A program made the translations under genes and the position numbers. DNA of 64,000 nucleotides from a virus: IMG/VR virus record IMGVR_UViG_3300045999_010887, positions 16,655 to 80,654 of that record; one strand, written 5' to 3'. The first letter of the stretch is position 1, and each line of letters begins with the position of its first letter. Below the pieces are notes generated by a model. That model searched no databases. It was not told where the DNA came from and was given only the letters and a program-made list of their open reading frames with translations. Shown piece by piece: positions 26,590 to 47,188 of the stretch.

Positions 26590-26617
26590 TGGTCAGTTTA
26601 CCGTCATGACCAGGACG
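26590..26617 (-). ncRNA. Family A H-type pseudoknot, copy 1
   Basis: CGTC-C-TGGTCA-T-GACG-GTAAAC-TGACCA. Confidence 0.7.
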
Positions 26618-26636
26618 CCCACACCCCCGTGGGACG

Positions 26637-27038
26637 TCAGTCTACCAGGTCTGTCAAGCTTTTAGTAGCAATGGTAACAAACTGATTGATGTAATCAGTC
26701 AAGGCTTCAACCTTAGCATTGACCACTTTGATCTCCTCCATCAACTCTTCCCTGGAAGGGCTCAAACCAAAGATGTCATTGTCTTTGAGTGCCTCTGGGT
26801 TGTTAGCTTTTTGATACATGCGGCAATCATTGTTGGTTGCATAGACAGTTTCTTGATATATTTCAGAAACTGTTTTGAAATCAACATTGCCAACTCCCTC
26901 GGCTGAAAGGAGGTTGCAGGTATCAAGGTAAAGCCTGGCAGCAAACCTGACATTGTCTTTGAAAAACTTCACATACTGTTCAGAAGGAAGTCCGTAGGTG
27001 TCAATCGACATAACAATCCAAAGCTTCTCGGAGTGCAT
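26637..27038 (-). CDS. Hypothetical protein
   Basis: ORF track. Confidence 0.55.
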   Translation of the reverse strand: MHSEKLWIVMSIDTYGLPSEQYVKFFKDNVRFAARLYLDTCNLLSAEGVGNVDFKTVSEIYQETVYATNNDCRMYQKANNPEALKDNDIFGLSPSREELMEEIKVVNAKVEALTDYINQFVTIATKSLTDLVD

Positions 27039-27303
27039 TAATCATAAAGGTTTCTTGGCCTTCTGGACCAAGGTCAGTCCACCATTGAAGATCAGGATCG
27101 TTTTCGTCCCATTCAATATGAATGGTCATGGAACCATCCTCCTCATCAATGCAATTAATTTGCAACTTGTTAATTGAACTGGGATTCAAGCCGATCGAGG
27201 CCAGATTCAACATGTCCAATAAGGATGTGTTCTGCATAGGTTTCGCAATCAGTTTTGATCTCTGCACCAAGCTTAACGAGACCCCAGTAGGTGTCTTCGT
27301 CAA
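27001..27303 (-). CDS. Hypothetical protein
   Basis: ORF track; start uncertain. Confidence 0.45.
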   Translation of the reverse strand: MTKTPTGVSLSLVQRSKLIAKPMQNTSLLDMLNLASIGLNPSSINKLQINCIDEEDGSMTIHIEWDENDPDLQWWTDLGPEGQETFMINALREALDCYVD

Positions 27304-27406
27304 GCTCTAGATCTAATTTGAATTTACCGTTTGAAAGCATCATTGTTTTTAAAGGTGGTTTTGCAATAAGCGATAACGCATACTCACGTAACTCGTCAGG
27401 CATCAT
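27170..27406 (-). CDS. Hypothetical protein
   Basis: ORF track. Confidence 0.45.
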   Translation of the reverse strand: MMPDELREYALSLIAKPPLKTMMLSNGKFKLDLELDEDTYWGLVKLGAEIKTDCETYAEHILIGHVESGLDRLESQFN

Positions 27407-28344
27407 TGCTTTTTAAGTGCAGCCTTGAGTTGTGGCAGTGCAGTACCAGGAAATGGAACGTAGCCCGCCTCCATCATATTGAAGAACAAATCCCATGCAT
27501 CATGCTGCGTAAAGATTTCCTTAGGTTTGTAGGTACGCCAATGCGTCAGCGGAGCTTGTGCCCCTGAGTTGGTATATAACAATACAAAACGACCGTCACT
27601 AATGTGATCAACGGGTGGTGCATACCACCAGGCCACACACTTCTCAGGCGTACCACTGGGGCTGGCATTCCGTACATCAGTGCGCTTGCACAGCAGTTCC
27701 CTGTACTTGTTGAACCAAGTCAGGTGGATACACCAGGGCTTGAAGCCTTGGATCTCGGACGCAAAGTCAGATAGGTTGCTGAGCTGACGCTGATACGACC
27801 CACACGAACACCAAGGTTCACCCATGACAGGCTCGGACTGGTCAGCTTCCATGTCGCTGTCAAGGTCAATGGGCCGATTTGGAAGCCGCAATCCGTCTGG
27901 TGCAACCAGATGTCCAAGATCCGTTTGGTCGGACTGAAGGAGATGGAGGACTTTGTTGGTGTCTGATACATGTATAAATTTGTCAGCCCAATGCGCCTGG
28001 AGCTTTGCATTTGAGGTCAGGTGTCCGAGTGCATGCGTGTAGTTCCAGCCCTTAAAAAGAATGTAAGCATTGTTATGCCATACACTAGGGCCACGGTAAT
28101 TGGGACCAAGGTAAGAAAAGAAGTCTTCGAGACGATTGGTGTAGGTTTGGAAATGAGCTTTGATTAATGTCCGTTCGTAGATTTGCTCAGTGCCATCATG
28201 ACACACCACAACACAATGATCGCCTCGCAGATAAATGCCAGCGATTGCGGTGTCATCAAAGTCCGGGTAAGCACGCCGGATACTGGAACGAGAGTAGATA
28301 AGAGCCTGCGCCGAGTTGAGCTCGGTCTGCGCCTGGATCGACAT
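27403..28344 (-). CDS. SWIM zinc-finger-like protein
   Basis: WCSCGSY...WCIH (CxC..CxH). Confidence 0.6.
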   Translation of the reverse strand: MSIQAQTELNSAQALIYSRSSIRRAYPDFDDTAIAGIYLRGDHCVVVCHDGTEQIYERTLIKAHFQTYTNRLEDFFSYLGPNYRGPSVWHNNAYILFKGWNYTHALGHLTSNAKLQAHWADKFIHVSDTNKVLHLLQSDQTDLGHLVAPDGLRLPNRPIDLDSDMEADQSEPVMGEPWCSCGSYQRQLSNLSDFASEIQGFKPWCIHLTWFNKYRELLCKRTDVRNASPSGTPEKCVAWWYAPPVDHISDGRFVLLYTNSGAQAPLTHWRTYKPKEIFTQHDAWDLFFNMMEAGYVPFPGTALPQLKAALKKQ

Positions 28345-28374
28345 GAAGTTGAGTTGGGTTGAGTGGGATTGGAA

Positions 28375-28605
28375 TCAGACGTGCCAGAAGGACGTGTCCT
28401 CTTCTTTTTGATCCGACTTGATCTTAGCATTGGCCTTGGCGTGTTTGTACGCAGCCTTGCCCATGCGATAGGTGCCGTAAAGAACAGCAGCCCAGCACAC
28501 GGGGTTCCCAATGATAGAGGCAACAACAGCACTAGCAGCAAATGTTGCTCCTGCTGTTTTGATTGCCGACTTTTCTTCAGGGTTCATGTCAGAGATTCTT
28601 AACAC
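28375..28605 (-). CDS. Small membrane protein
   Basis: Hydrophobic central segment. Confidence 0.5.
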   Translation of the reverse strand: MLRISDMNPEEKSAIKTAGATFAASAVVASIIGNPVCWAAVLYGTYRMGKAAYKHAKANAKIKSDQKEEDTSFWHV

Positions 28606-28669
28606 AAATGGAAAGTTGTGCGTAATAAATGTTTAAGTAAGTAGACTTGTTGTAACAAATAAATACAAA

Positions 28670-28930
28670 ATGGACGAAATTAAATACGTACCTTTAACCA
28701 AATTTCAAATTGAACCAACGCTTGACGATAAATTCTGGGAAGAAAAAGTCAAACGTTCAATTCAAGATTGTAATTCAGTCAGTACATTAAAGGAAATAGC
28801 GATCCTCTTAGCGAGGATCGCTACCCAACGTCAAGGTGTGATTCGTGGGTTAGTTCAAGACATGTTCATCTTCAACAATGTTGCAGTTGAACCAGATGGC
28901 TTGACTAACCCTGACGTCACCTCACAGTGA
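28670..28930 (+). CDS. Possible NblA-like helix-loop-helix protein
   Basis: PTLDDKF..VKRSI..STLKEIAILL..QRQGVIRGL resembles the NblA pattern. Confidence 0.35.
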   Translation: MDEIKYVPLTKFQIEPTLDDKFWEEKVKRSIQDCNSVSTLKEIAILLARIATQRQGVIRGLVQDMFIFNNVAVEPDGLTNPDVTSQ

Positions 28931-29938
28931 ATCGTCTTCACCAGTTAGGGGATCACGAGAAGGCAGGGCCTTTACGTCAACCGCATCTGTGGTACGAGAC
29001 ACAGGCAGGATCTCGACGCCTTGCTTGATGCCATAGGCACCACCAAGCTTTTCAGCATCCTGACGTGCATGTTGATTGATGTAATCGCTGAACATTTCCT
29101 GGAACTTCCAGGTTGATTCACGATCTTCATCAGGAATCGACATGCGGCTCAGCGATTCGATGGCGGCATCTTGGTCGCTGTAATCAGGGATGTCAAAAGA
29201 TTCAATTGCGCAGATCTCAACGTTGTTGGCTCCACGCATTTCGTTGGCAAGTACCGGAGCAAATACGGTAGTGGCGTAGAACTTTTCATTGAATGCAAGA
29301 GGCACTTCAGAATCCAGTGCCTTGCTCAGGCACTTAGACATTTCCTTCTCATACAGCTTGACCTTATCGGACACATCGGTGCCATTCAGACCTTTGAGGG
29401 TAAGGACCATCGGGATCTTGTGAGCACGCTTGTTGTCCTCAGTCACGATGTAGATGAGGTACTTGGTGCGTACGCTGTACTTACGCTTGTACATTTCGCC
29501 CTTGCTGTTAGCAAGGTCGGCAGCAATCTTGTCGGCATCAAACAATTCCTTGACCTCTGGATGCTCAAAGGTACCAATCGTTTGACGCATCCCTGTGGTT
29601 TCTTCAACCATCAAGGGAGAACGCAGCAGGATTTGAATGCGTGGCTCAGTGAAGTTCAGGCCTTCTTCAACAGAAGTGTTGGGTGCCATACCAAAGGTTT
29701 GCTTGTAATCCCAGATGACGGAACCTTTAGCAAACTGATCTTCGGTTGCAGTCCAACCACAGGTATCAAGATCTGATTTACGGATGAACCATCCGCGTAC
29801 TTTTGACTTGTTGAGAGGTTGAATTGTGACGAGGTTCTGGTAGCCAGATACAAATTCTTTAGACTGGAACATCCGGAAGGAGTCAAGTCCGCGAGCAGCA
29901 AGCGCAGCAGTTTTCTTGGTGGTCATGGAAGAGGTCAT
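28922..29938 (-). CDS. DUF5895-like protein
   Basis: PRIQILLRSPL, RTKYLIYIV..NKRAHKIPMVLTLKG; near SSB. Confidence 0.5.
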   Translation of the reverse strand: MTSSMTTKKTAALAARGLDSFRMFQSKEFVSGYQNLVTIQPLNKSKVRGWFIRKSDLDTCGWTATEDQFAKGSVIWDYKQTFGMAPNTSVEEGLNFTEPRIQILLRSPLMVEETTGMRQTIGTFEHPEVKELFDADKIAADLANSKGEMYKRKYSVRTKYLIYIVTEDNKRAHKIPMVLTLKGLNGTDVSDKVKLYEKEMSKCLSKALDSEVPLAFNEKFYATTVFAPVLANEMRGANNVEICAIESFDIPDYSDQDAAIESLSRMSIPDEDRESTWKFQEMFSDYINQHARQDAEKLGGAYGIKQGVEILPVSRTTDAVDVKALPSRDPLTGEDDSL

Positions 29939-29958: not shown

Positions 29959-29986
29959 TGAGCAGTTTAACGTCATGCTTAGGACG
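29959..29986 (-). ncRNA. Family A pseudoknot, copy 2
   Basis: CGTC-C-TAAGCA-T-GACG-TTAAAC-TGCTCA. Confidence 0.7.
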
Positions 29987-29991
29987 TGAGG

Positions 29992-30234
29992 CTATTCTGC
30001 TTTAGGTTTGTCCCATTCCATCACGTACTGCTGGGTACGTAATAAATCGAAATATGCCGCAGAAGATTCTTTCATGCATTCATAAATAGTACTTTCCATG
30101 TAGCCACAACCCTTGAGGAAATCCACAACGTGGGTGACTACATCGTCAGCAACTAATGCTTTGAATTCATAAAGAAGTTTGGTGTTCTCATCCTCGTAAA
30201 GCAGGGTGAATTGATCGTGAGTTGGTGTTGACAT
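29992..30234 (-). CDS. Hypothetical protein
   Basis: DFLKGCGY motif common in small phage proteins. Confidence 0.55.
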   Translation of the reverse strand: MSTPTHDQFTLLYEDENTKLLYEFKALVADDVVTHVVDFLKGCGYMESTIYECMKESSAAYFDLLRTQQYVMEWDKPKAE

Positions 30235-31049
30235 CAGAAGGGTACTTCGTCGAGTTCAGGTGCATTGCCGTAGTGACCAGGCAGATCAGGCAGTCCACCA
30301 CCAGAGGCAGCGTTCCAAGGATCCGCTGGCTCCTCAGCAGTGCGGCCACCCCAAAGCGGTGCGACCTTATCGGAGTTAGCCACTACAGTCTGAGGGCGAA
30401 TCGATTGATTGGCTGTGTCGCCTGTCACCTTTGGCGCCAAGGTCATGGACACCAGTTGAATCTTGGTGACTTGACGGCGCTGATTACTTTCTTTATCTTG
30501 CCAGGCATCGGTGACTAGACGACCATTGATCGTTAAGCCTGTCCCTTTACGCGTGAAATCAAGTAAGAGCTGAGCATTGTTCAGCTTGTCTTGATGGGAA
30601 TTAATAGCGTAAAAATTAAAGAGATCTGCTTGATTGCGTCCGGTATTAACGGAAAGCGTTTGATTGCAGATCATCAGACCATCTGCCGTTGTCTTAAAGG
30701 CGCGTGTGTCATCCTGCTGGATGTCTTTAACGCAACGACCACTAAGAATGATTGTGTTTAGGATCGGAAACGATTCCGTGACCGTGGTAATGACGCCACC
30801 ATGGAGCGAGTGGGTGCGTGTCTCCAGGTCATAGCGCAGCTTGGCGCCATGAATGTAGATCAACGAGTTCTTTGCAGTGCGTGCAAAACGCTCAGAGTTT
30901 TTGCCATAGACGTTGAGTTCAATTGGAGTTGCTGCCTTGTTACCAACAGGTGGCAGCAAGACATTGCAACGCAGGGCGTAAGACGTTGCAGAGATGGATA
31001 CCTCACGGGGTTCCTCTGTGGTTTGGGCACAGACAAAAGCTTGGTTCAT
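30234..31049 (-). CDS. ssb: Single-stranded DNA-binding protein with two OB folds
   Basis: Two SSB-like repeats (MNQAFVCA.., LNTIILSGR..KGTGLTINGRL..W) and acidic tail LDEVPF. Confidence 0.85.
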   Translation of the reverse strand: MNQAFVCAQTTEEPREVSISATSYALRCNVLLPPVGNKAATPIELNVYGKNSERFARTAKNSLIYIHGAKLRYDLETRTHSLHGGVITTVTESFPILNTIILSGRCVKDIQQDDTRAFKTTADGLMICNQTLSVNTGRNQADLFNFYAINSHQDKLNNAQLLLDFTRKGTGLTINGRLVTDAWQDKESNQRRQVTKIQLVSMTLAPKVTGDTANQSIRPQTVVANSDKVAPLWGGRTAEEPADPWNAASGGGLPDLPGHYGNAPELDEVPF

Positions 31050-31071
31050 GTGATGCCAAAAGGTTGTGTGA

Positions 31072-31101
31072 GAGGCAGTTTAACGTCTTACCTCAAGGAC
31101 G
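31072..31101 (-). ncRNA. Family A pseudoknot, copy 3 (ssb leader)
   Basis: CGTC-CTT-GAGGTA-A-GACG-TTAAAC-TGCCTC; contains the upstream TAA. Confidence 0.7.
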
Positions 31102-31351
31102 AGAGATCAACTGGTTTATGTTTAACTTCAATCATTTCACCTTTTCGATTCCAACACTGACCACAATCAGGACACTGATAATGGTTAATACGGTCAGTGC
31201 CCAAATACTCCACACCAATAACACGACTAAAGAATTTAGATTCGGGTGAATAATAACCCTTGTCTATGGATTCTTGAGGGATGTAGGAGTGAATCCAGCT
31301 GACTTCGCAAACCGGGCACTGTTCTACTTTGGTGATGTCGAGGTAGTCCAT
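31088..31351 (-). CDS. Small zinc-ribbon protein
   Basis: CPVC...CPDC. Confidence 0.6.
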   Translation of the reverse strand: MDYLDITKVEQCPVCEVSWIHSYIPQESIDKGYYSPESKFFSRVIGVEYLGTDRINHYQCPDCGQCWNRKGEMIEVKHKPVDLSSLR

Positions 31352-33216
31352 CAGTGGGTCTGAGACCAGTCCGATCCTACCCTGGAATCACCTTCGATAC
31401 TGCAGCGGAACCCAAAGAATTCCTGTGCCTGTGGGAAAGCAAGCATGGCCTGCTCTCTGATGGCGTCTGTGTATTGAGGCTTGCACGCTAGTTGCACTTC
31501 ATCATGAACCATCAATAGTTGTTGCCAGTCATGATCGTATTGCAAACCAAGGTTTTGTTTGATGTTGTTGTGAATATTAATCACAACTTGTTTCATAAGG
31601 ATTGCACCAGCTGATTGCAACAACACATTCAATCCTTTGAATGCGGAACGACAATACAACTGACGACGATCCAAACCAATCAGATAACCACGCAAACCAA
31701 TAGTCTTATCAATCTCCAGCTTAAGAGCTTTCAATGCTGGGACACCACGCATAAAACCATCGATGGCATTACGCCCAAGCATGCGCAGTTCATCTTCATC
31801 TTTGAGATTTGGATCAATGATTGAACCAGCCTTTACAGATCCACAGCCATAGAGCATGCCGTAAAGCAACCTCTTGCTGATGTCCCTGGTTTCTACGCCA
31901 AATTGCTTTTGGTTGTAGGTGTGGATGTCAACGGATTCATCGGTTACCAGCCTTGCGTATTCACCGTTATCCCAGACGGCAAGGTATCCAGCAAGGCAAC
32001 GTAATTCAAGTGCCTTAGCGTCAATGCCAATGAGATCCCACCCGTCAGGAGGAACGAACAAACTTCGACACTCTTTTCCGTAAGGTGAGTAACTGGCTGG
32101 GACCTGACCCATATTTGGATTGCGGTGTGCACAGCGCCCAGTAATGCAACCGTTAGTAATAAGATCGCCGTGGATACAACCAGTGTCATTGTTGTAGAGC
32201 TTGATCCAAGCATTGTTGCCATCAGCAATTTGACCAAGGCGCTTTTTGATCAGCATATACTCAGCCAAAGGTTTAGCCTCTGGGTATGGGAGTCGTTCTA
32301 ATACTTCGTCATCAAGAACTGGATTTCCTTTCTCAGTTGTTTTCTCTGGAGTCCATCCGTACTTTTGGCGGAGTCGATCAGCAATCTGCTGACGAGATCC
32401 AGGATTGAACTCTTCATAGCTGACTTTAGTGAAAGGTTGTCCTTTGACATAACCACGATTCTTGTTGTTTACTTTTGGAACAAATGTTGATTCATGTTTG
32501 ATAGGTGGAAAGATTTGTTTTAGATGGGATTCAAGTTCTGTTTCCTTTGCTCTGAGATTATCCACCAAATCAAGAGCAGCATCCAAATCGAAAGGAACAC
32601 CTGATCTAATTTGTTTGTTAATCGCCAAAGCAAAGTTGTGCTCCAAGAGAATGGAGGACTCTGGATAATTTTGCGCAGCGATAAGCTGCCAAAGATTGAA
32701 GGTGACTGCAACGTCTTGGATGCAGTAGTCCAACATCTCCTGCGAGTATTCCGTGAAGTCTTTGAAGTCAATCTTATGGTTGGCCAATCGCCATCCCCAT
32801 GCCTTAAGCGATGGGGATCCACGTTGTGCCTTTGGAACTTCCGGATATTGTTCAATGTCAAGCTCATAGAGAACCTCCTTGGGCCAGATCAAACGTGAAC
32901 AGATGAGGGTGTCAATGATGCGAGCGTTGGTCTTAAAGTCTGGAAACAGTTTCTTTAAGACAGGGATGTCATAAAAGCAGATGTTGTGGCCAATAAGAAC
33001 ATCAGCGTTACGCAAATACTCAAGAGCAGTGTCAATGTTGTCAGGACCAAAAGACAAAGTGCTTTGACTGTTGATGTCATAGATGACAACACAGTGAACT
33101 TTGGCGACTTTGTCATACAGTCCGTCTGACTCCAAATCAAAGACATACCATTTGTCATTTGCGGAACTGGGCTTCATCGCGAACTTCGAGTTCTTCACTG
33201 GCAAGGCTGCTGTCAT
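31351..33216 (-). CDS. polA: DNA polymerase family A, T7-like, with 3'-5' exonuclease
   Basis: FDLESDG, GHNICFYD, motif A DAKALELR, motif B KRLLYGMLYG (Tyr at the 762-equivalent position), motif C VHDE. Confidence 0.95.
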   Translation of the reverse strand: MTAALPVKNSKFAMKPSSANDKWYVFDLESDGLYDKVAKVHCVVIYDINSQSTLSFGPDNIDTALEYLRNADVLIGHNICFYDIPVLKKLFPDFKTNARIIDTLICSRLIWPKEVLYELDIEQYPEVPKAQRGSPSLKAWGWRLANHKIDFKDFTEYSQEMLDYCIQDVAVTFNLWQLIAAQNYPESSILLEHNFALAINKQIRSGVPFDLDAALDLVDNLRAKETELESHLKQIFPPIKHESTFVPKVNNKNRGYVKGQPFTKVSYEEFNPGSRQQIADRLRQKYGWTPEKTTEKGNPVLDDEVLERLPYPEAKPLAEYMLIKKRLGQIADGNNAWIKLYNNDTGCIHGDLITNGCITGRCAHRNPNMGQVPASYSPYGKECRSLFVPPDGWDLIGIDAKALELRCLAGYLAVWDNGEYARLVTDESVDIHTYNQKQFGVETRDISKRLLYGMLYGCGSVKAGSIIDPNLKDEDELRMLGRNAIDGFMRGVPALKALKLEIDKTIGLRGYLIGLDRRQLYCRSAFKGLNVLLQSAGAILMKQVVINIHNNIKQNLGLQYDHDWQQLLMVHDEVQLACKPQYTDAIREQAMLAFPQAQEFFGFRCSIEGDSRVGSDWSQTH

Positions 33217-33388
33217 TTTTGTTAATCCACGTCAAGATCTGCTGAGCTCCAGCCCTGTATGGGTGGGAGAAGATCTTGTTCAGAGCTACCTCTGAATCTA
33301 ACGGAATTAATTGGAATTGATTAGAAGTTTGACAGGCAGTAATGGCAAATGGCTTACCGTTTTTCCAGGTAGCAATGACGTAAGACAT
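33155..33388 (-). CDS. Hypothetical protein
   Basis: 77-aa ORF downstream of a sigma70 promoter. Confidence 0.55.
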   Translation of the reverse strand: MSYVIATWKNGKPFAITACQTSNQFQLIPLDSEVALNKIFSHPYRAGAQQILTWINKNDSSLASEELEVRDEAQFRK

Positions 33389-33391
33389 AAA

Positions 33392-33437
33392 GGAATGAAA
33401 GACGGACAGATACTATCCGATCTTTCATTCCCGTCAA
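33392..33437 (-). promoter_or_regulatory. Sigma70 promoter TTGACG-N16-TAGTAT in an 11-bp inverted repeat
   Basis: Arms GGAATGAAAGA/TCTTTCATTCC flank the -10. Confidence 0.6.
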
Positions 33438-33443
33438 GGTTCT

Positions 33444-33917
33444 TCAGTTTGTCTTCTGTTTTGATTTGCGGAAACCAAGACGTTCGTGATGCGCCACTGT
33501 TGCCTTATCACAACCAAAGCGCTTCGCAATCTGATCGCGGCTCATGCCGGAGACTCTGAGTTGTTTCATTTTGTCAAGATCCTCTTGGCTAAACCGTGTT
33601 TGCTTTGGTCGAAAACGTCCTCTTTGCATCTTGTCATTTACGTTGTCTTGGTTTGTTCCAAGTAGAAGATGAAGTGGATTGCAACAAGATGGATTGTCGC
33701 ATGTGTGCCGTACTTGTAAAGCGTTGTAGATAACAACACCATGATGATGCTGATAACTCCAACGATGAGCAAGCATTGTTTTGTTATCTATAGATGATTG
33801 GCCATAGCCTTTTGGATTCCTAAATCCAAGCCAAGGCCAACAAGCTTCATGACCCCCGGAGGGGTCAATCTGCTTTAAGAACGTTAATGAGTTATTTGGT
33901 GTTCTGCCTCTAGGCAT
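33444..33917 (-). CDS. Free-standing HNH (His-Me) endonuclease with C-terminal HTH
   Basis: CWPW..GYG..LAHRWSY..VRHTCDNPSCCNPLHL..GTNQDN. Confidence 0.88.
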   Translation of the reverse strand: MPRGRTPNNSLTFLKQIDPSGGHEACWPWLGFRNPKGYGQSSIDNKTMLAHRWSYQHHHGVVIYNALQVRHTCDNPSCCNPLHLLLGTNQDNVNDKMQRGRFRPKQTRFSQEDLDKMKQLRVSGMSRDQIAKRFGCDKATVAHHERLGFRKSKQKTN

Positions 33918-34683
33918 GAGATTGATTTTTACGTTTGGAACTATAGCCCACAAATCCCCCTTCCTTCTTGCGTTGAGAAAGCGCCTTGCTTGCGTCGGAT
34001 CCAGCCCGCTGGGAGCCATGAACCAACAGTGCGAAGGGCTTGTCACCTAAGCAATGGCTGTCGTCGTGATCGATCTCCAGACCACGCTCTGCTGCCTCAG
34101 CTTCTGTGTAGACCACATAAGCGATGCGCTGAAACACATGCGGATATTTCGGGATGAGGTAGTCAAGTGTCCCACCGAACGATGCGGTGAGGTAGAAGTT
34201 GGGTGGGATCTGATCCCGTAGGTTAATCCACATACCAAGAGACTTGGTGTAGCTGTAGAACTTTTGCCTGGGCCTCTCGCGAGCAACCATCATCCAAGCC
34301 TTCATGTAGTTCTCAGTCCAGTAGTCACCACTCTCATGGACACGAACAAGTTCCTTGGGTGGCTGCATCAAAAGGGACATGTCAATCAGATCACGGAGGA
34401 GTGTGACCTGATTGCCGTTCATGTGGATGGTTTCACGCAACAGATCCCAGTTGTGCCAACGCGCTTCACGCACGGTGGGCCTGGTCTCCGCCATGGCAGC
34501 AAAACAACGGTACTCATCTGCTTCTGTGCCTGTGAACTGAGGCAGGTCACGGATCTGACCAGTGACACGATCAGCCATGGTTTTGCAAACACCAGCATGT
34601 GGACATGAATAGCCCGCTGGGATATTGAAGATGAGTCGGTTCTTAAGCTTGCCGTTACCGGTAGAAAATTTCAGGAGCTTCAT
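33910..34683 (-). CDS. Gene product 88 (GP88)-like protein
   Basis: GNGKL..FNIPAGYSCPHAGVC..CFA..RVHESGD..FYSYTKS. Confidence 0.75.
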   Translation of the reverse strand: MKLLKFSTGNGKLKNRLIFNIPAGYSCPHAGVCKTMADRVTGQIRDLPQFTGTEADEYRCFAAMAETRPTVREARWHNWDLLRETIHMNGNQVTLLRDLIDMSLLMQPPKELVRVHESGDYWTENYMKAWMMVARERPRQKFYSYTKSLGMWINLRDQIPPNFYLTASFGGTLDYLIPKYPHVFQRIAYVVYTEAEAAERGLEIDHDDSHCLGDKPFALLVHGSQRAGSDASKALSQRKKEGGFVGYSSKRKNQSHA

Positions 34684-34716
34684 GGTTGTGTTGAATTGAT
34701 TGATAAGAAAAACTAA

Positions 34717-34744
34717 TGAGTAGTTTAAGGACGTGCTCAGGTCC
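34717..34744 (-). ncRNA. Family A pseudoknot, copy 4
   Basis: GGAC-C-TGAGCA-C-GTCC-TTAAAC-TACTCA; stem 1 covaries. Confidence 0.7.
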
Positions 34745-34763
34745 ATCTTCCCGTTCGGGATTA

Positions 34764-35057
34764 TTACAGTTGATTACAGCCTTTGAATGGTTCTCTGGAC
34801 AAACGAATCATAATCTGATCACCTGAGTCTGGAACTTCTGATGGACCCTGGTGCACCAGGATCTCCCATACGCTTCGATTGATCTTCATGATGGAGTGAC
34901 AGTACTTCGTCATCAAAGCTTCTTTGTCTTGCCCTGGTTTGTAGGACAAAACTTTCTTGTGGATACCAACGGGTTCATCTTCATTGTCTTTGGTGTAACA
35001 AGCAACCCAGTAAGCAGATGAATGGGTCTTTTGTTTGGTCGTACTAAAACCTTTCAT
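34764..35057 (-). CDS. Hypothetical protein
   Basis: MKGF... ORF. Confidence 0.55.
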   Translation of the reverse strand: MKGFSTTKQKTHSSAYWVACYTKDNEDEPVGIHKKVLSYKPGQDKEALMTKYCHSIMKINRSVWEILVHQGPSEVPDSGDQIMIRLSREPFKGCNQL

Positions 35058-35072
35058 TAGTTGATCGGACTA

Positions 35073-35306
35073 CTAGGCTTCAAGCTCGGTGGCAATGGCG
35101 AAGAGATTACCCACTGTCACTGCATGGACCGGACAGCCTTCCAAATAAAAGGTTTCTCCTTGCTCTGCGGCAGCACGCAGGGCGGCGGCAGCAACCATGC
35201 CTGCGTGTTTCTTGGCGGGAACTACATAAAGGTGTTCCTCTTCGTCGTAGACGCGGAAAGCGGCAAACTGCACCGCCTGAGCAATAGGTGAAAGTTCTTG
35301 AGTCAT
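35073..35306 (-). CDS. Hypothetical protein
   Basis: LSPIAQAV...AAALRAAA motif of small cyanophage proteins. Confidence 0.55.
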   Translation of the reverse strand: MTQELSPIAQAVQFAAFRVYDEEEHLYVVPAKKHAGMVAAAALRAAAEQGETFYLEGCPVHAVTVGNLFAIATELEA

Positions 35307-35412
35307 TGTTGAACTTCGTAGTGTGTAGAACTAAGTTGTAGTTATGTTACTGGATGAACAACATCATATACATGAAACGTCATATACTTTCCGTATCAAC
35401 CGCTACAGAATA

Positions 35413-35565
35413 ATGACGCTCACGTATCGGGGTGTCAAGTACGACAAGGACGAGCAGTCCAAGACGGACATTGGCTGGTGGAACTTAGCCCACCGTCCAT
35501 GGCTCTGCCTGACGTACCGTAACATCTGCTACTTTCCTTTTGTCACCGGAGGTCAAATCAAATGA
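35413..35565 (+). CDS. DUF4278-like peptide
   Basis: MTLTYRGVKY and a second LTYRNICY. Confidence 0.7.
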   Translation: MTLTYRGVKYDKDEQSKTDIGWWNLAHRPWLCLTYRNICYFPFVTGGQIK

Positions 35566-35706
35566 ACAAAGCACTGATTGTCTACTTGGTAGATAGGAAA
35601 AAGAAAGTGACACGCAAGGATGTGGAGTCCAAGCATGCCATCAAAGAATTAAAAAAACAAACAACCGCGACCTTCTGATCGCCATTGTTCTATCTCCTCC
35701 CCTGGC

Positions 35707-37871: not shown

Positions 37872-37883
37872 TCCGCTGTGATT

Positions 37884-38246
37884 TTAAGCAGTTTGGGCGT
37901 TGGTGTCTACCGCCTGGTCCATCAGGCCTGACTCTTTGAGTCGATCCAGCATGCCGCACATGATGGTGGCATGGGCATGGGTTTGTTCCATGAACATGCG
38001 CGCCCGCTCTGCCGACATGGTATGGACACGGCCGGAGGGTTCCACATAACGCCAGCTGCCATCAGGCTGGGGATCACCTTGGAGGGCAAGACGTTCTGAG
38101 TTATGAACGTACCTGAGCTCGAGGTTGTAATGGTCCTTAAGGCCGTCAGCCGCTGTCCAGGTTGCTCCAAGGTTGTAACGCTGTTCTTCATCAGAGTAAG
38201 CGTGGAACTCAGGGATAAGATTTTTGAAAGCAGCAAAGAGTTGCAT
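37884..38246 (-). CDS. Hypothetical protein
   Basis: MQLFAAFK... with C/A-rich leader after the tRNA. Confidence 0.6.
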   Translation of the reverse strand: MQLFAAFKNLIPEFHAYSDEEQRYNLGATWTAADGLKDHYNLELRYVHNSERLALQGDPQPDGSWRYVEPSGRVHTMSAERARMFMEQTHAHATIMCGMLDRLKESGLMDQAVDTNAQTA

Positions 38247-38267
38247 GATGTTGTGTTGAGTGTAGGT

Positions 38268-38354
38268 TGGTGCAGACGGCGGGAGTCGAACCCGCAAGGG
38301 CAAATGCCCGACGCATTTTAAGTGCGTTACGTATACCTATTCCGTCACGTCTGC
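38268..38354 (-). tRNA. tRNA-Leu(UAA), intronless, CCA encoded
   Basis: GCAGACG/CGTCTGC acceptor, ACGCA-CTTAAAA-TGCGT, long variable arm, GCGGG-TTCGACT-CCCGC, ACCA. Confidence 0.95.
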
Positions 38355-38564
38355 ATCACTTGGACTTACACTCACATCAATTGATGTGTGATGCCAAGTG
38401 TGATCATGAGGTAACGGCTCAGTGCCGTAGTCCCATGTATCATAGTCATCCTCGTTACGAGGATCCTTATCGATCAGGATGTACTGAGGTGAGTTATCTG
38501 TGATGTACTCACCAATGTTTGCCATTGCCATGGCAAGCAATTGATCATCAGTGTAATCGGGCAT
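38337..38564 (-). CDS. Hypothetical acidic protein
   Basis: ORF whose stop lies inside the tRNA-Leu 5' end. Confidence 0.5.
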   Translation of the reverse strand: MPDYTDDQLLAMAMANIGEYITDNSPQYILIDKDPRNEDDYDTWDYGTEPLPHDHTWHHTSIDVSVSPSDADVTE

Positions 38565-38613
38565 GAGTTAAAGGGCATCCATATAACGAGGATAGGATGC
38601 CCCTGCTGTGGCC

Positions 38614-40338
38614 TTAGCTTTCAGATCTTAGCTGTTTCTCACGAGATTGCAAGGCCTGCTTGAAGGCAAGTGCGTACTCTTCCCTTTGCTCCTCGTTCAG
38701 TCGCTGGTTGGCTACGCCAGCAATCTGCTTGACGTTCATGACACCCATGGATACATCCAGTTGAATGGTGAAGGTTGGCCTACCATCAATCATGCAAAGC
38801 ACAATGAAGTGCTTACGTTTCTTGATGTCTTCTGCATACTGGGACGCAGAGCCCACACAGTTGCGGACTGCTTGTCCCCACTGTGCAAGTTGATGCGTAT
38901 CAATGGGTTGCAGGAATGTCCAGCTATGGCCATTCATCTCTACATGCACAGGTGCAGGGAATAGATCCTGGTGCAGTGACTCCTTCTTGTTCTGAATCTT
39001 CCATGCCTCTGCTTGCACATAGTCATGGAAGTCAGGCATGCGCCAACGCTTTGGTGGCTCAAGTGTTTTACCTGCCTCAAGGATACGCATGATCATTGAG
39101 AAGGTATCGTTCATCTCATACCATGAATGAACAAAATAGTTGTAATCAGAATGGATTAAAGAACGAGCTGACGCAGACTTCTCTTCATTAGATTTTTCAG
39201 AATACTTACGCATCATATTGAGGAACGATGTAACACTCATGTGCTCACGTAGCCAAACAATGAGTTCATCACTGGTACGCAAGTGATTGAGATTGACTTG
39301 ACGTAACTCAGCAAAGTATGTACGGTAATGATCAAGCGGACAGTCGGGCCATACTCGATTGATAAAGTAGATTGAATTAGTCGTCTGCTCAAATTCTTTG
39401 TAACCATACTTAATTGCTTTACGCAATTCGTTATCAACATTGTTGTACTGTTCAACAGAGCGATCAAGCATTGTTTGCAAACGCTTCTTGATAAATGGAG
39501 TTGTAATGATGTGCTGAATATCGTTGATGGTTAGATAGGTTAAAGATGTGTAATTATTCTTAGCTGTCCATGCATTAGCAAGGTCAACTATATTGTCAAC
39601 CGTTAACTTGAATACTGAACGATCTTCGATGCAGTTTGTTAATGCAAATGGAAACTCAAGTGCATCAAGAAGGTTATTACATTTGATGCGATCAAACATG
39701 GAATGACTGTCGTTCCATGTTGGGATAGTTTCCATCAAAGTTGACTCAAAACTATTGATTGCATCATTCATATCACGTGACTTCTGGTAGTAACTAGCAA
39801 TACCCATGGCACGCCAATTACGTGCATCATTACCTGCAATGATGTCTTGCTTAGTTATGGTACGTGAGTACGTAAAGGTTTGCGCGCCACGTGTACTGGC
39901 GTGTTCGGTGCAACGATCTTTAGTATTCCAGATATGACGAGGTAGTACCTTAGCTGCAGCTGCAGTGTTCTTGAATGCATAGGCATAGCCATAGATGTAG
40001 TCCTCACCTTTGGCAGGTAGCCATGCGGCATACCAGCATTGCTCAAAGTGATAGAGGATTGCAATGGTAATTGTACGTGCTTGTGGTGTGGCAACATCAA
40101 CCACCTTGGTAAAGCGATGGTAACGTTCTGATACACCTGACGAATTGATACGATCAATTGCATCTTGTTGATAGCTACCACGCACCACATTCTCAGGGAT
40201 GAGATGTGGGATATTACCCAATGGATATTTAGCTTTCTTTGTAGTCTTCTTGGGTTCCTGTTCTTTGACCAAAGCCTTAAGCTTTGGATCATAAGCCAAG
40301 AGTTCTTGTTGCAGGCAAGAGGGAATTTGGAAGTGCAT
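38614..40338 (-). CDS. PcfJ-like domain protein
   Basis: FHD...PIDTHQLAQWGQAVRNCVGS..Y...TIQL..VKQIAGVAN. Confidence 0.75.
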   Translation of the reverse strand: MHFQIPSCLQQELLAYDPKLKALVKEQEPKKTTKKAKYPLGNIPHLIPENVVRGSYQQDAIDRINSSGVSERYHRFTKVVDVATPQARTITIAILYHFEQCWYAAWLPAKGEDYIYGYAYAFKNTAAAAKVLPRHIWNTKDRCTEHASTRGAQTFTYSRTITKQDIIAGNDARNWRAMGIASYYQKSRDMNDAINSFESTLMETIPTWNDSHSMFDRIKCNNLLDALEFPFALTNCIEDRSVFKLTVDNIVDLANAWTAKNNYTSLTYLTINDIQHIITTPFIKKRLQTMLDRSVEQYNNVDNELRKAIKYGYKEFEQTTNSIYFINRVWPDCPLDHYRTYFAELRQVNLNHLRTSDELIVWLREHMSVTSFLNMMRKYSEKSNEEKSASARSLIHSDYNYFVHSWYEMNDTFSMIMRILEAGKTLEPPKRWRMPDFHDYVQAEAWKIQNKKESLHQDLFPAPVHVEMNGHSWTFLQPIDTHQLAQWGQAVRNCVGSASQYAEDIKKRKHFIVLCMIDGRPTFTIQLDVSMGVMNVKQIAGVANQRLNEEQREEYALAFKQALQSREKQLRSES

Positions 40339-40368
40339 GAGTTGAATTGATTGAGTAGGTACTGAAAA

Positions 40369-40400
40369 GCCTGGGACTTACACCTTACGGATGCCCAGGC
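40369..40400 (-). ncRNA. Family B hairpin, copy 1
   Basis: GCCTGGG-CAT-CC-GTAA-GG-TGTAAGT-CCCAGGC. Confidence 0.7.
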
Positions 40401-40413
40401 ATGATGTCAAACG

Positions 40414-40841: not shown

Positions 40842-40873
40842 GAATTGAAATGAGTTGAGGTAATGGACAAAAG

Positions 40874-40901
40874 CTGGGACTTACACCTTACGGATGCCCA
40901 G
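40874..40901 (-). ncRNA. Family B hairpin, copy 2
   Basis: CTGGG-CAT-CC-GTAA-GG-TGTAAGT-CCCAG. Confidence 0.7.
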
Positions 40902-40905
40902 ATCT

Positions 40906-41315: not shown

Positions 41316-41453
41316 TGGTGTTGAGTTGATTGGTGGTCTAGAAGACTTGGGTAGTCTACCAGGGTTGTCAAGGGATGGTAAAGGGGGAATACATAATAGT
41401 TTCTTATAGAACTAAAGGTATCCCCCTGGTACTTCCCCAGGGGTTGTAGGGGA

Positions 41454-41928: not shown

Positions 41929-41970
41929 AGCCTGGGACTTACACCACATTGTTATGTGGACGCCCAGGCT
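41929..41970 (-). ncRNA. Family B hairpin, copy 3
   Basis: AGCCTGGG-CGT-CCACAT-AACA-ATGTGG-TGTAAGT-CCCAGGCT. Confidence 0.7.
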
Positions 41971-44383: not shown

Positions 44384-44448
44384 TGCAGGGAAAACCCTGC
44401 AGAAAACCCACTCATCACAAGGATGAGAAGGGTTAAGTGCAGAGGTCA
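44384..44448 (-). ncRNA. Family D two-state hairpin, copy 1
   Basis: TGA-cct-CTGCA-CTTA-ACCC..GGGT-TTTC-TGCAG-GGTTTTCCCTGCA. Confidence 0.55.
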
Positions 44449-44652: not shown

Positions 44653-44856
44653 TCAGATGTCTTTCTTGGGAGTGATAACAAATGCCATGTCATCAGGCAT
44701 CATGAGTGCAGCAGCACGACAACGAATGTCATGCAGCTTCTCTGATGCATTAACCGATTGACATGTCTTGGTAGCAACCTTTGCTGTAGTCTTGGTTGCA
44801 GTTACTACCCAAGGCAGGAATTCACGTACGTTCTTCCTGAAATTAAGTGCAGTCAT
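44653..44856 (-). CDS. Hypothetical protein
   Basis: ORF with C/A-rich leader. Confidence 0.55.
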   Translation of the reverse strand: MTALNFRKNVREFLPWVVTATKTTAKVATKTCQSVNASEKLHDIRCRAAALMMPDDMAFVITPKKDI

Positions 44857-44875
44857 GGCATTGAGTTGAGTGGAA

Positions 44876-44928
44876 GCAGGATATAGAATCCTGCAGTAAA
44901 GGGCCGAAGCCCCTTAGAGCAGGAATCA
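44876..44928 (-). ncRNA. Family D two-state hairpin, copy 2
   Basis: TGA-tt-CCTGC-TCTAAG-GGGC-TTCG-GCCC-TTTACT-GCAGG-ATTCTATATCCTGC. Confidence 0.55.
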
Positions 44929-45174: not shown

Positions 45175-45251
45175 AGTGTTGTGTTGAGTAGATGCCACGG
45201 GATTGTGGCAAGTGTTGTGTGGGGGATTTGATCCCCCGGCATCACGCCTGG

Positions 45252-45446
45252 TCAGAAGACCATCACAACGTCGTCGGCCTCCATCATCTCCTCGAAGGAC
45301 ATGATGCGCACGTCATGCGTGCCTTGTATGCCGTTGTTAAGTTCGGGTGCATTGAGCTCGAAGTCGCATTGAGCTGCTTCGATTAGCGCCTCTTCCCACT
45401 GGAAGGAAACGCCATGTTGCACGCCGTCAATCACAATGAAGTACAT
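45252..45446 (-). CDS. Hypothetical protein
   Basis: Between family C copies. Confidence 0.55.
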   Translation of the reverse strand: MYFIVIDGVQHGVSFQWEEALIEAAQCDFELNAPELNNGIQGTHDVRIMSFEEMMEADDVVMVF

Positions 45447-45527
45447 GGTGTTGAGTTAAGTAGATGCCACGAGATTGTGGCAAGTCTGAACCAGGGGATT
45501 GCACCCTGGAACGCCGCTTAAACGGAC

Positions 45528-45707
45528 TCAGATAGCGTAACCGTTGGTGATGCACCAGTTACGGTGAAGCGTGTCATGCTCCTTCGGCCAGTCATGTGTA
45601 ATGCACTGGTGAGCCGTTGCCTTGTCCACAAAATGGATGACGACTTGGCTACCAATGCCCATGATGGAAGCAGCAATGAGCACGCAGGATGCAATACGTT
45701 GAGTCAT
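45528..45707 (-). CDS. Small membrane/secreted protein
   Basis: Hydrophobic segment plus QCITHDWP..H..WCITNGY. Confidence 0.55.
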   Translation of the reverse strand: MTQRIASCVLIAASIMGIGSQVVIHFVDKATAHQCITHDWPKEHDTLHRNWCITNGYAI

Positions 45708-45781
45708 GATTGCGTTGAGTAGATGCCACGGGATTGTGGCAAGTCTGATGCCGGGAATTGAACCCGGCTGCGCACCAGCTA

Positions 45782-45964
45782 TCAGAAAGGATGATAGTCG
45801 ACTACCAGAAGATCTTGCTCCCAATCCTCAAAGGATTGGAAGTATTCAAGAGCTTCTTGCTCGTTGTCAAACACCTTCTCACATCCCTGGAAGTAGGCGT
45901 CTTCGAATGTGTAGTCAGCGTAAACAGCAAAAGGATTACGCTTAACTTGAACGGAGTAATACAT
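45782..45964 (-). CDS. Hypothetical protein
   Basis: MYYSVQVK... Confidence 0.55.
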   Translation of the reverse strand: MYYSVQVKRNPFAVYADYTFEDAYFQGCEKVFDNEQEALEYFQSFEDWEQDLLVVDYHPF

Positions 45965-46040
45965 GTTGAGTTGAGTAGATGCCACGGGATTGTGGCAATA
46001 ACTGGACCAGGGTTTGCACCTGGTCACCCGCTTTAACGGA

Positions 46041-46244
46041 TCAGCTAACTTCGTAAATTGCCCATGACATTGAGTCATAAACCTTCCTGGCGATTTCGCC
46101 ATTCGGATCGTTAACCTCAATGAAACGGTCAACTATTTCAGCCATGCAGATTTCATGGCTGACCATTCTCTGACAACAATCTTCAATTGCTGCCTCACGA
46201 AGTGAGATCAGCACTTCAAGAGTGTGCGCAAGAGCTTGGTCCAC
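46041..46244 (-). CDS. Hypothetical protein
   Basis: AGGAG RBS plus GTG start. Confidence 0.55.
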   Translation of the reverse strand: MDQALAHTLEVLISLREAAIEDCCQRMVSHEICMAEIVDRFIEVNDPNGEIARKVYDSMSWAIYEVS

Positions 46245-46328
46245 AGGATTCTCCTGTTGTGTGGTGCCCATCTCCACAGGGGGCAATAACTGTGGGAGGG
46301 TTTGCACCTCCCAACCCGCTTTAACGGA

Positions 46329-46559
46329 TCAGTTGTTCTCCAGCATCTCGTCCACGTAGGACTTGATAACCTGGAGGTGTTCGGCAGTAAGTACCTGGCT
46401 ACGGCCATACTCAAGCAGGTCAAGGACCTGGAGCATGACTTGATCGCCAGCTTCCTGCCGGGTCGGTACGCCACACATATCGAAGATCTCTTCGCATGAC
46501 ATCTCAGTGATGTCAACGCAGTCGATCTGACGAACGGTGGCGATGGTGGTGTTGGTCAC
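46329..46559 (-). CDS. Hypothetical protein
   Basis: GGAG RBS plus GTG start. Confidence 0.55.
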   Translation of the reverse strand: MTNTTIATVRQIDCVDITEMSCEEIFDMCGVPTRQEAGDQVMLQVLDLLEYGRSQVLTAEHLQVIKSYVDEMLENN

Positions 46560-46574
46560 GGTGTACTCCGGTAG

Positions 46575-46608
46575 CTTGGACTTACACCACTGAAGTGTGG
46601 ATGCCAAG
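46575..46608 (-). ncRNA. Family B hairpin, copy 5
   Basis: CTTGG-CAT-CCAC-ACTTCA-GTGG-TGTAAGT-CCAAG; outer stem covaries. Confidence 0.7.
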
Positions 46609-46639
46609 AACACCTGGTGACCTACCACCTGAGTTGTCT

Positions 46640-46664
46640 GCTACGTTTAACGTCCAGCTCGACG
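46640..46664 (-). ncRNA. Family A pseudoknot, divergent copy 5
   Basis: CGTC-GA-GCTG-GACG-TTAAACG-TAGC. Confidence 0.5.
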
Positions 46665-46867
46665 ATTACACTGCTTAAATCCCGACCTTTAACATCGGGA
46701 TTAACCAAGTCTTGTATTACTCACTGTCCTATTTGGCCCGTGGGGGAGCGTAGCGCCACATCCAACCGAAATGTCAGGAAATGTTGACAATTGAGAGGAT
46801 AATGAGTGGAAGACTCACTAAATGAGGGCTATATAAACCCCTGGTCGCCCAGGGGAAGAGATAACCG

Positions 46868-47188
46868 TCAATCGAAGCAGGTTGCTTCTATAACGAAGCT
46901 AAGATCTTTGGGTCTGCGTGTGATAAACACTCGCCATTGACGGATGTCAACGCTACCTTCGCTGCTGGTGTCATAGCTGTTAGCGTACAACTCTTGTTGA
47001 GCAAGCTCAAGCTCGTAGATGTACAGATAACTAAGCAACTTATCCATCAAACGCTTCGGACTAATGTCCGCAGCTTTGAAGAATCCTGGTGCTAATGTCA
47101 CCTTCTTGCCGTTAGCAAGTGCAGCAACTGCGCACTCGCAACGGTAGTCAACTTCGTAAGCGCTGATCGTAGCAATGAATGTTGCCAT
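46868..47188 (-). CDS. Hypothetical protein, first gene of the small-ORF array
   Basis: MATFIATIS... Confidence 0.55.
   Translation of the reverse strand: MATFIATISAYEVDYRCECAVAALANGKKVTLAPGFFKAADISPKRLMDKLLSYLYIYELELAQQELYANSYDTSSEGSVDIRQWRVFITRRPKDLSFVIEATCFD

Follow-up and report, generated by a model that had tools for sequence, protein, structure and literature searches.

Covarying RNA elements at the gene junctions of a freshwater cyanophage include a coremin-like pseudoknot and a tRNA-like fold

Introduction

Coremin, GUCCGAAGACGUUAAACUAC, consists of a first hairpin (hp1) of 3–4 bp, a conserved spacer of 10 nt and a second hairpin (hp2), and in beny-, cucumo- and further RNA viruses it brings the 5'-3' exonuclease Xrn1 to a halt (PMC6546385, PMC10520033). 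In its mutational map a change of U13U14 to AA is tolerated, while AAA, C and U are essential (PMC6546385), and a selected Watson-Crick variant with canonical pairing between loop and spacer is resistant to Xrn1 (PMC10321173). Both coremin forms need hp2 for the stall. A flaviviral exoribonuclease-resistant RNA (xrRNA) also halts bacterial RNase J1, so that the block is independent of the enzyme and of specific contacts (PMC5760640). From T4-type phages the promoter-stem-loop (PeSL) cassettes are known (PMC2839356, PMC4122927). Here we describe four families of compact RNA elements (A to D) between the genes of a cyanophage, in a stretch of 64,000 nucleotides that comprises bases 16655-80654 of an IMG/VR virus record of 80,654 bp rated complete (in the following, the window). 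The elements fold as RNA on one strand, are conserved in related phages, keep a fixed geometry towards the neighbouring genes and replace each other, and family A matches coremin in sequence. We propose, with a probability of roughly one half, that they are boundary marks which direct the cutting of the transcript (family C and a tRNA) and block its 5'-to-3' decay (family A and probably family B).

The window is part of an S-EIV1-like freshwater (lake) cyanophage of 80.6 kb. Its DNA polymerase, of polymerase family A, shares 68% identity with the enzyme of the freshwater cyanophage S-EIV1, a Synechococcus phage, and all other cultured phages are distant; a megablast of 12 kb against cultured phages gave no match, and the relationship surfaced in the protein search only. 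The genes from about 25.7 to 47.2 kb lie on the minus strand and code for PolA, SSB, ThyX, a GP88 homologue, a PcfJ-like protein and about thirty small open reading frames (ORFs). Neither an RNA polymerase nor a ribonuclease was found among the 83 window ORFs scanned against Pfam and PHROGs, and host enzymes must therefore make and process the transcripts. For comparison we used 25 related loci reached through the PcfJ-like protein, about 180 viral contigs from two motif scans and S-EIV1 itself.

Results and Discussion

Repeat finding together with reading of the gaps between the ORFs gave four A, six B, five C and two D elements, one terminator-like hairpin and a tRNA-Leu on the minus strand between 26.5 and 46.9 kb (Table 1). 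The original prediction, a reading of the bare sequence, had already placed compact elements of four families there, and this part stands with slightly altered copy numbers. Four of its five A pseudoknots were recovered, the fifth probably being a different pseudoknot at 46259-46286; B occurs six times instead of five, with the sixth copy (38357-38400) inside an ORF and adjoining the tRNA-Leu; the five C elements are all present and fall into three subtypes; and from two or three D elements two conserved nested-hairpin elements remain, as the third (46838-46855) is an ordinary terminator-like hairpin. This hairpin alone among the listed elements qualified in a terminator scan, in which A, B and C were not called. 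The three main families recur on the sense strand in relatives, with about 140 unique copies of A, about 120 of B and dozens of C. Stems covary while loops are conserved in C (24 sequences), in A (55 sequences) and in B (about 120 unique copies), and the predicted selection on RNA structure instead of DNA repeats is borne out by these compensatory changes and by many G-U pairs, which are A-C on the opposite strand.

Table 1: Elements on the minus strand of the window, listed from higher to lower window positions.
Position	Strand	Element	Context or basis
46838..46855	-	terminator-like GC-rich hairpin + UUUAU	after gene 46868-47188; no special family
46639..46664	-	family A, S2 GCUG/YAGC subtype	long leader of GTG-start gene; subtype shared with ~40 related contigs
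46573..46610	-	family B, outer stem CUUGG/CCAAG	followed by GGAG-containing hairpin and GTG start
46286..46336	-	family C, type i (C1)	AACUG/CAGUU closing stem including UGA stop; hairpin CCG-UUAAAG-CGG; T-like arm of 7 bp, loop UGCAAAC
46259..46286	-	second pseudoknot type, UUGCCC..AGAUGGGCA..	caps RNA after C1; then GGAG hairpin, GTG start
45998..46048	-	family C, type i	three-way junction in minimum free energy fold
45981..45998	-	UU + cap hairpin GCCAC-AAUCCC-GUGGC	then leader AUCUACUCAACUCAAC, ATG
45744..45786	-	family C, type iii	UCUGAU/AUCAGA closing stem, AGCUGGUGCGCA, T arm CCGGG-UUCAAUU-CCCGG
45725..45742	-	UU + cap hairpin	after type iii C
45483..45535	-	family C, type i, UCUGAG/UUCAGA closing stem	type i alignment
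45466..45483	-	UU + cap hairpin, AAUCUC loop	after type i C
45213..45273	-	family C, type ii	GUUGUG/CACAAC stem in coding end; first of two small arms holds UGA; GGGGG-AUCAAAU-CCCCC as T arm
45194..45211	-	UU + cap hairpin	after type ii C
44857..44925	-	family D, nested CCUGC..[AAGGGGC-UUCG-GCCCUUU]..GCAGG, then GCAGGAU/AUCCUGC	
44384..44448	-	family D, second subtype, CUGCA..AACCC..hairpin..GGGUU..UGCAG	conserved in L109, L126
42969..43022	-	family B, long apical stem	repeat finding, relatives
41930..41969	-	family B	repeat finding, relatives
40872..40903	-	family B, minimal: 2-bp inner stem + GUAA loop	repeat finding, relatives
40369..40400	-	family B	upstream of PcfJ-like gene 38614-40338
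38357..38400	-	family B	within ORF 38337-38564; ends 2 nt ahead of tRNA-Leu
38268..38354	-	tRNA-Leu(UAA), encoded CCA	CA-rich leader directly after, then ATG at 38246
31072..31101	-	family A	loop holds TAA stop of gene 31088-31351; upstream of ssb 30234-31049 (Pfam SSB)
29959..29986	-	family A, CGUCC-UAAGCA-UGACGUUAAAC-UGCU	upstream of DUF5895 gene 28922-29938
26590..26617	-	family A, S2 UGGUCA/UGACCA, GGUAAAC variant	CCCAC/GUGGG hairpin precedes

Family A has the consensus CGUCC, a loop of 6–8 nt, GACGUUAAAC and then 5–6 nt that pair with the loop. In 55 distinct copies 93.5% of the cells, the pseudoknot stem included, are paired, compared with 17–52% when the partners are slid against each other. 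The pseudoknot stem S2 carries 14, 25 and 13 double changes at pairs 10-30, 11-29 and 12-28, with 89% of its cells paired. Stem S1 is CGUC/GACG in 53 of the 55 aligned copies and near-fixed within the phage lineage, and compensatory variants of it occur as CGAC/GUCG in Staphylococcus phage B236, UGUC/GACA in seven relatives, GAC/GUC in a crAss-like phage and GGUC/GACC on an Acinetobacter plasmid.

A full-text literature search with the invariant nonamer of A returned papers on coremin. Both motifs have GUCC and GACGUUAAAC(U) in the same order, the hp1 stem GUC/GAC of 3–4 bp is preceded by a C-G pair, and the GUUAAAC(U) part of the spacer is identical and contains the AAA-C(-U) that is essential for coremin. 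Compared with the coremin spacer GUUAAACUAC (essential A15-A17, C18, U19 and A20), A keeps GUUAAAC, has U19 in more than 90% of the main subtype and shows a change of A20 to G. The natural variation of A mirrors the mutational map of coremin, as seen from AAAAAC in Mycobacterium phage Labelle: AAAC does not vary in the alignment of 55 sequences or in distant copies, and the following U is nearly invariant, being kept in all copies compared except for the GCUG/YAGC subtype, which has a G in its place. It is this match that favours a roadblock function of A, and the exonuclease block, one of several mechanisms originally suggested, thus gains support for A from its near-identity to coremin. No paper that treats coremin or xrRNA together with phages was found in our literature search; a survey of 10,006 unnamed phage RNA candidates (PMC10690425) may contain the motifs.

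Family A is a motif spread over phages of many phyla and is not peculiar to the window phage. A strict pattern of 22 bases matched 23 contigs of species genomes, where less than one match was expected, including Enterococcus, Ruminococcus, Finegoldia, Selenomonadaceae, Saccharibacteria, Anaerolineales and a CRISPR spacer. A blastn search with 34 nt of A matched 134 cultured phage records, 83 of them from Staphylococcus phages and others from phages of Nostoc, Microcystis, Mycobacterium, Arthrobacter, Bacillus, Lactobacillus, Moorella and Paracoccus; among 5,426 E. coli genomes none has a close copy. The Firmicutes copies of A occupy the 5' region of genes for scaffold proteins (PF06810, PF14265), often right behind a terminator, and in Firmicutes prophages and Staphylococcus phages A is found upstream of highly expressed scaffold and capsid genes. 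The copy in Staphylococcus phage B236 begins 9 nt past the head-morphogenesis gene and 60 nt ahead of the scaffold gene. In Arthrobacter and Mycobacterium phages A begins 7 nt past a stop codon and upstream of tRNA genes, as in Arthrobacter phage Molivia (L234), where it has ssb on one side and two tRNA genes on the other, and upstream of tRNA-Gln in Mycobacterium phage Labelle (L233), and in Nostoc phage NMeng1 (L232:701-806) a canonical A is followed 6 nt on by an annotated pseudo-tRNA. RNase J (TIGR00649) scored above the cut-off in four of five host genomes carrying A. A strict correlation between A and RNase J was rejected, as a good copy lies on the Acinetobacter plasmid; a copy in a Vibrio phage runs antisense to its genes.

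Two further observations concern A outside the window. In a metagenome-assembled genome (MAG) of Bradymonadales an A sequence (L209:1793-1816) lies amid the direct repeats of a CRISPR-like array and appears to be a spacer acquired from an A-carrying phage. In Firmicutes prophages (L231:2545-2565, L208) a further, conserved hairpin of CGUGG-N6-CCACG with UAAAA after it is located about 15–20 nt past A, and in Staphylococcus and Enterococcus phages this hairpin stands ahead of the Shine-Dalgarno (SD) sequence of the scaffold gene.

All families share one slot, and they share it together with its leader type with the tRNA-Leu, as had been predicted. In more than 450 non-identical contexts with an upstream ORF of at least 40 codons the positions are regular, starting at or near the stop and ending before the next start: A and B begin at a median of 5 and 4 nt past the stop codon, C overlaps it, and the distance from the end of the element to the start of the next long ORF is 20–28 nt for A and 25–32 nt for B (10th to 90th percentile). 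The C/A-rich, SD-less leaders were confirmed, since the 25 nt ahead of 40 minus-strand starts have frequencies of 0.32 for A, 0.32 for C and 0.14 for G with an SD-like tetramer in only 2 of 40, compared with 11 of 42 other genes in the window. The families also replace each other. The slot of the PcfJ-like gene, occupied by B in the window, holds A or an A variant in 23 of the 25 relatives, and B adjoins tRNAs in the window and in relatives. The common slot and leader, the real tRNA in this slot, the exchange of A and B and the breaks of homology described below together argue that the families form one system.

The tight distance to the start and the unstructured leaders without SD would also suit a role in translation, where the elements might insulate the start region, halt sliding ribosomes or offer a standby platform for SD-less initiation. 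Coremin can block ribosomes during scanning and can stimulate frameshifting (PMC10520033, PMC10321173), and the stops embedded in C and in one A copy mean that terminating ribosomes must unfold these elements. We nevertheless consider this explanation unlikely, because A in Firmicutes stands 16–110 nt ahead of starts with ordinary SD sites, because A and B are also found directly ahead of tRNA genes, where no translation starts, and because the tRNA-like shape of C would be left unexplained.

The elements mark points at which homology between relatives breaks off. One conserved and one unrelated flank are seen in 218 pairs for A and 209 for B, two conserved flanks in 59 and 46 pairs, a ratio of about 4 to 1; contigs of related phages join position 29986 to 40413, element to element. 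The elements are thus cassette boundaries in evolution, as are the PeSLs of T4-type phages, and with this precedent (PMC2839356, PMC4122927) one could regard them primarily as recombination linkers for cassette shuffling, with the RNA structure being secondary. The cassette-boundary role does not explain the compensatory changes and the strand specificity: recombination depends on sequence identity and not on compensatory changes, and RNA is indicated by the G-U pairs and by the strict bias to one strand. Moreover A is conserved across phyla, over which an exchange with cyanophages is implausible, and a promoter consensus like that of PeSL is missing, which together make linkers as the primary function very unlikely. 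An identity as PeSL cassettes was rejected, as no promoter-like site lies within the elements and 19 promoter-like sites were counted where 28.1 +/- 5.7 are expected.

Family B is built from an outer stem NCUGGG/CCCAGN and an inner stem, with an invariant internal loop between them that has CNU as its 5' and UGUAAGU as its 3' strand. The inner stem can be as short as 2 bp with a tetraloop or extend over more than 60 nt. Both stems covary around the internal loop in the roughly 120 unique copies. Outer-stem positions that were not forced by the detector are paired in 71% of the copies compared with 43% after shuffling, and the forced positions show G-C, U-A and A-U alternatives. The idea that B and C have a T-loop in common was not confirmed, because the heptamer of B is one strand of the internal loop and not a hairpin loop. 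As far as found, B is confined to the lineage of the window phage: among 185,579 species genomes none matches its exact gapped pattern, cultured phages yielded only partial blastn matches at chance level, and a literature search with its core string returned nothing beyond primers. The sole argument that favours a roadblock function of B is that B replaces A.

Several B copies of relatives end 2 nt ahead of tRNA-Leu like the sixth copy in the window. The ORF 38337-38564 on the minus strand, with 75 codons, reads through this sixth B and has its TAG stop in the D-loop region of the tRNA-Leu, an arrangement conserved in two relatives (L019, L020). Maturation of the tRNA would strip this ORF of its stop codon.

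Family C consists of a closing stem, a small hairpin (CCG-UUAAAG-CGG in type i) and an arm of 5–7 bp with a loop of 7 nt, which is UGCAAAC, AUCRAAU or UUCRAUU. The 5' strand of the closing stem is formed by the last sense codon or codons and the UGA stop of the upstream gene. In 24 copies of type i 90% of the cells are paired compared with 30–50% when the partners are slid by 1–3 columns, changes on both sides occur at 12 of 16 pairs, and for the arm pairing reaches 97%, with covariation at six pairs. The closing stems track the coding sequence (UCUGAU/AUCAGA, UAGCUG/CAGUUA, GACUG/CAGUC), and at an orthologous gene GUUGUG/CACAAC has become GGUUGAG/CUCAACC. In 22 of the 24 type i copies closing stem and T arm add up to 11–13 bp with both helices covarying, as long as the acceptor/T-arm stack in tRNAs. 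The T loops UUCAAUU and UUCGAUU follow the canonical pattern, whereas position 55 is G in UGCAAAC and position 54 is A in AUCAAAU; C56 and A58 are present in all of them.

Past the 3' strand of C one unpaired base and an invariant UU are followed by one of two arrangements. The first has a GCCAC-loop-GUGGC hairpin, a CA-rich leader and ATG; the second has another pseudoknot, which covaries, then GGAG within a small hairpin, and GTG as the start. Stem S2 of this second pseudoknot type covaries in relatives (GCGG/CCGC, UGUGG/CCACA, GCAG/CUGC). A leader of this second type, which differs from the CA-rich ones without SD and has GTG and GGAG both folded into a small hairpin, is seen at 46253-46290 and 46549-46575 on the minus strand and in many relatives. 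In the unrelated marine cyanopodovirus S-CBP2 (L239:1275-1545) the same module of C, UU and hairpin follows the second gene. The published record of S-CBP2 (L239) also has an unannotated ORF of about 62 codons after the C element and its cap hairpin.

In a search against Rfam 15, at gathering thresholds and with E up to 10, on 21.5 kb and 1.5 kb, only tRNAs passed the gathering score, and the elements obtained weak matches to mascRNA, tRNA and tmRNA only, in agreement with the earlier statement that no named Rfam family could be assigned. The full-length alignments of the third C element (C3) to mascRNA with 18.7 bits and of the fifth (C5) to tRNA with 18 bits are below threshold and came from the search of the shorter stretch, and the type iii element (45744..45786) also weakly matches the T arm of tmRNA. 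C is not a full tRNA cloverleaf, as the best score of 18 bits compares with a gathering score of 29 and ARAGORN finds tRNA-Pro and tRNA-Leu only, and searching the 1.5-kb stretch with E up to 10 gave no match of tLRNA-2/3 (RF02926, RF03030) to a C element.

The aptamer-like conservation and the small pseudoknot topology of A, which has about the size of preQ1-I and contains a segment like P1-UUAAAU of pistol, could bring riboswitches or self-cleaving ribozymes to mind. That the elements belong to either class is extremely unlikely, as no Rfam model for such RNAs matches up to E of 10, terminators and starts are free of overlapping expression platforms, each genome has many copies ahead of unrelated genes and P2 and P3 of pistol are absent; preQ1-I and pistol were rejected on these grounds, with no SD-sequestering stem found either. 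Also rejected were integron attC sites, which would need inverted R'/R'' core sites that are missing here, and selenocysteine insertion sequences or UGA read-through, where some copies are followed by about 25 codons of open frame, a length within chance, and this frame mostly differs from that of the next gene. Of the mechanisms offered at the outset, processing as a tRNA mimic fits the anatomy of C alone, T7-like RNase III sites are unlikely with stems as short as 4–8 bp, and termination-reinitiation has found no evidence; the overall picture of a control layer working gene by gene is one that we infer.

In cyanobacteria tRNA genes are mostly without encoded CCA and RNase Z is used, and RNase Z of B. 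subtilis cuts before a U. In the model that we favour, the long early and replication transcripts of the minus strand would carry modular RNA boundary elements at the gene junctions. C and the tRNA-Leu would present a tRNA-shaped handle, a stack of 11–13 bp with its elbow, at which host RNase P and/or RNase Z could cut the polycistron. The most economical cut in C would be made by RNase Z past the unpaired base following the closing stem, by which the upstream cistron would retain its stop codon and a folded 3' end and the downstream RNA would begin with UU and the cap hairpin or pseudoknot. The tRNA-Leu lies in the same slot, and to mature it host enzymes must make a cut in the transcript about 20 nt ahead of the next ATG. 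A, a coremin-like H-type pseudoknot, might act as a directional roadblock against machineries that track from 5' to 3', such as the exonuclease RNase J, RNase E scanning from the 5' end and perhaps ribosomes, and would fix a protected 5' end about 22 nt ahead of the next start codon, and B with its invariant 3x7 internal loop may do the same job through a different fold. The unstructured, G-poor and C/A-rich leader of 20–32 nt after each element would then allow ribosomes to initiate without an SD sequence.

Several points weigh against this model, in which every enzymatic step, be it cut or stall, is inferred. The hp1 loops of A (CUGAGCAU, CUAAGCAU, AAGCUG etc.), with a length of 6–10 nt, have U or A as second base and not the G of YGAD/YGNNAD, and hp2 is missing, as what follows the spacer is paired, with covariation, to the hp1 loop and forms no local hairpin; with neither the YGAD loop nor the downstream hairpin, A is coremin-like and not a member of coremin. 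A is also present where RNase J is probably absent, namely on the Acinetobacter plasmid and in a Bacteroidetes MAG (no family match above cut-off), so that RNase J is not the sole partner and a wider class of 5'-to-3' trackers is needed. The plasmid, pYH16056-6 (L240:500-531) with 6.4 kb, carries a well-formed A with S1 GGUC/GACC near its rep gene, and to our knowledge RNase J is not known from this Acinetobacter lineage. C has neither CCA nor the canonical G1-C72 and its T loops UGCAAAC and AUCAAAU are deviant, and an RNase P cut on the 5' side of the element would cost the upstream gene its stop codon, which argues against such a cut as the productive event. B is without any known relative, and the invariant loops are equally compatible with protein-binding sites.

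The last point leads to the loops as operators for RNA-binding proteins of phage or host, for example in an autoregulation of ssb. The loops and a part of the stems do not vary and the other stems covary, A is located upstream of ssb in the window and downstream of it in Arthrobacter phage Molivia, and the pseudoknot of T4 gene 32 provides a precedent (PMC10690425). With A lying ahead of unrelated genes (scaffold, primase, PcfJ-like, tRNAs) in phages that have no obvious protein in common, no RNA-binding family seen among the window proteins in the Pfam and PHROGs scans, and four different operators requiring four partners, such a function is hardly probable.

Apart from the main families, relatives of the first D element carry a T-arm-like GCAGG-AUUCAAUU-CCUGC. 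In the gap 41316-41453 on the minus strand a CCCCUGG/CCAGGGG hairpin is found together with the promoter-like TTGACA-17-TAGACT, and the 20-kb stretch is therefore probably not one transcript. In the gap of 693 nt between the genes for the GP88 homologue and the DNA polymerase, a free-standing HNH_3 homing-endonuclease ORF with a helix-turn-helix tail (33447-33860, minus strand; Pfam E 6.6e-10) is present.

Conclusion

Tentatively, and with less confidence than in the boundary marks themselves, one might go further and see in these elements a toolkit of interchangeable, protein-independent RNA devices used by phages of many phyla. A would then be the phage counterpart of the coremin of plant and fungal RNA viruses, by descent or convergence, acting on RNase J and scanning RNase E, including the RNase J employed in type III CRISPR immunity, C would be a tRNA punctuation like that of mitochondria which evolved independently in cyanophages, and B would be a third, structurally new roadblock fold. 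If true, phage operons would be punctuated by dedicated RNA folds beyond promoters and terminators, A would be the first natural exoribonuclease-resistant RNA of the bacterial world, and an RNA motif of plant viruses would be linked to double-stranded DNA (dsDNA) phages. The phage copies of A also offer hundreds of natural covariations for the still unsolved fold of coremin, and the system provides a testable reason why small early genes are easily shuffled between cyanophages. It might further yield compact parts of 28–50 nt with which genes in synthetic operons could be stabilised or insulated in cyanobacteria and Gram-positive bacteria.

Compared with known systems, the elements resemble the early RNase III sites of T7 in being structured, in lying between the genes of a polycistron and in delimiting and stabilising mRNAs as would be expected here; the T7 sites are irregular hairpins of about 20 bp, whereas here stems of 4–8 bp occur in pseudoknots, tRNA mimics and short hairpins. 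With PeSL they have in common that repeated intergenic modules flank small variable genes and that homology breaks there, but PeSL combine an early promoter with a hairpin terminator and are believed to function at the DNA level, while our elements are strand-specific, covarying RNA folds, and A spans many phyla. C is comparable to tRNA-type processing signals such as the tRNA punctuation of mitochondria, the t-elements of plant mitochondria and mascRNA/MALAT1 (RF01684) in having a closing stem on a T arm, a D-like hairpin and a position at the junction of two functional RNAs, with a genuine tRNA in the same operon slot; it differs from them by the missing anticodon arm, a 5' strand taken from the upstream coding end and the UU with cap hairpin that follows, and it scores below the gathering thresholds of all models of the tRNA clan. 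The closest known systems to A are coremin (xrRNA-C) and xrRNA-WCC of eukaryotic RNA viruses (PMC6546385, PMC10520033, PMC10321173, PMC5869530). Coremin is located in the 3' untranslated region of eukaryotic RNA viruses, whereas A lies between the cistrons of dsDNA phage mRNA, 20–28 nt ahead of a start. Like xrRNA-WCC, A has a hairpin loop that is Watson-Crick-paired with the sequence past the spacer, and as this pairing comprises 5–6 bp compared with 0–3 in coremin, A looks like a natural and longer version of the Watson-Crick pairing selected in coremin.

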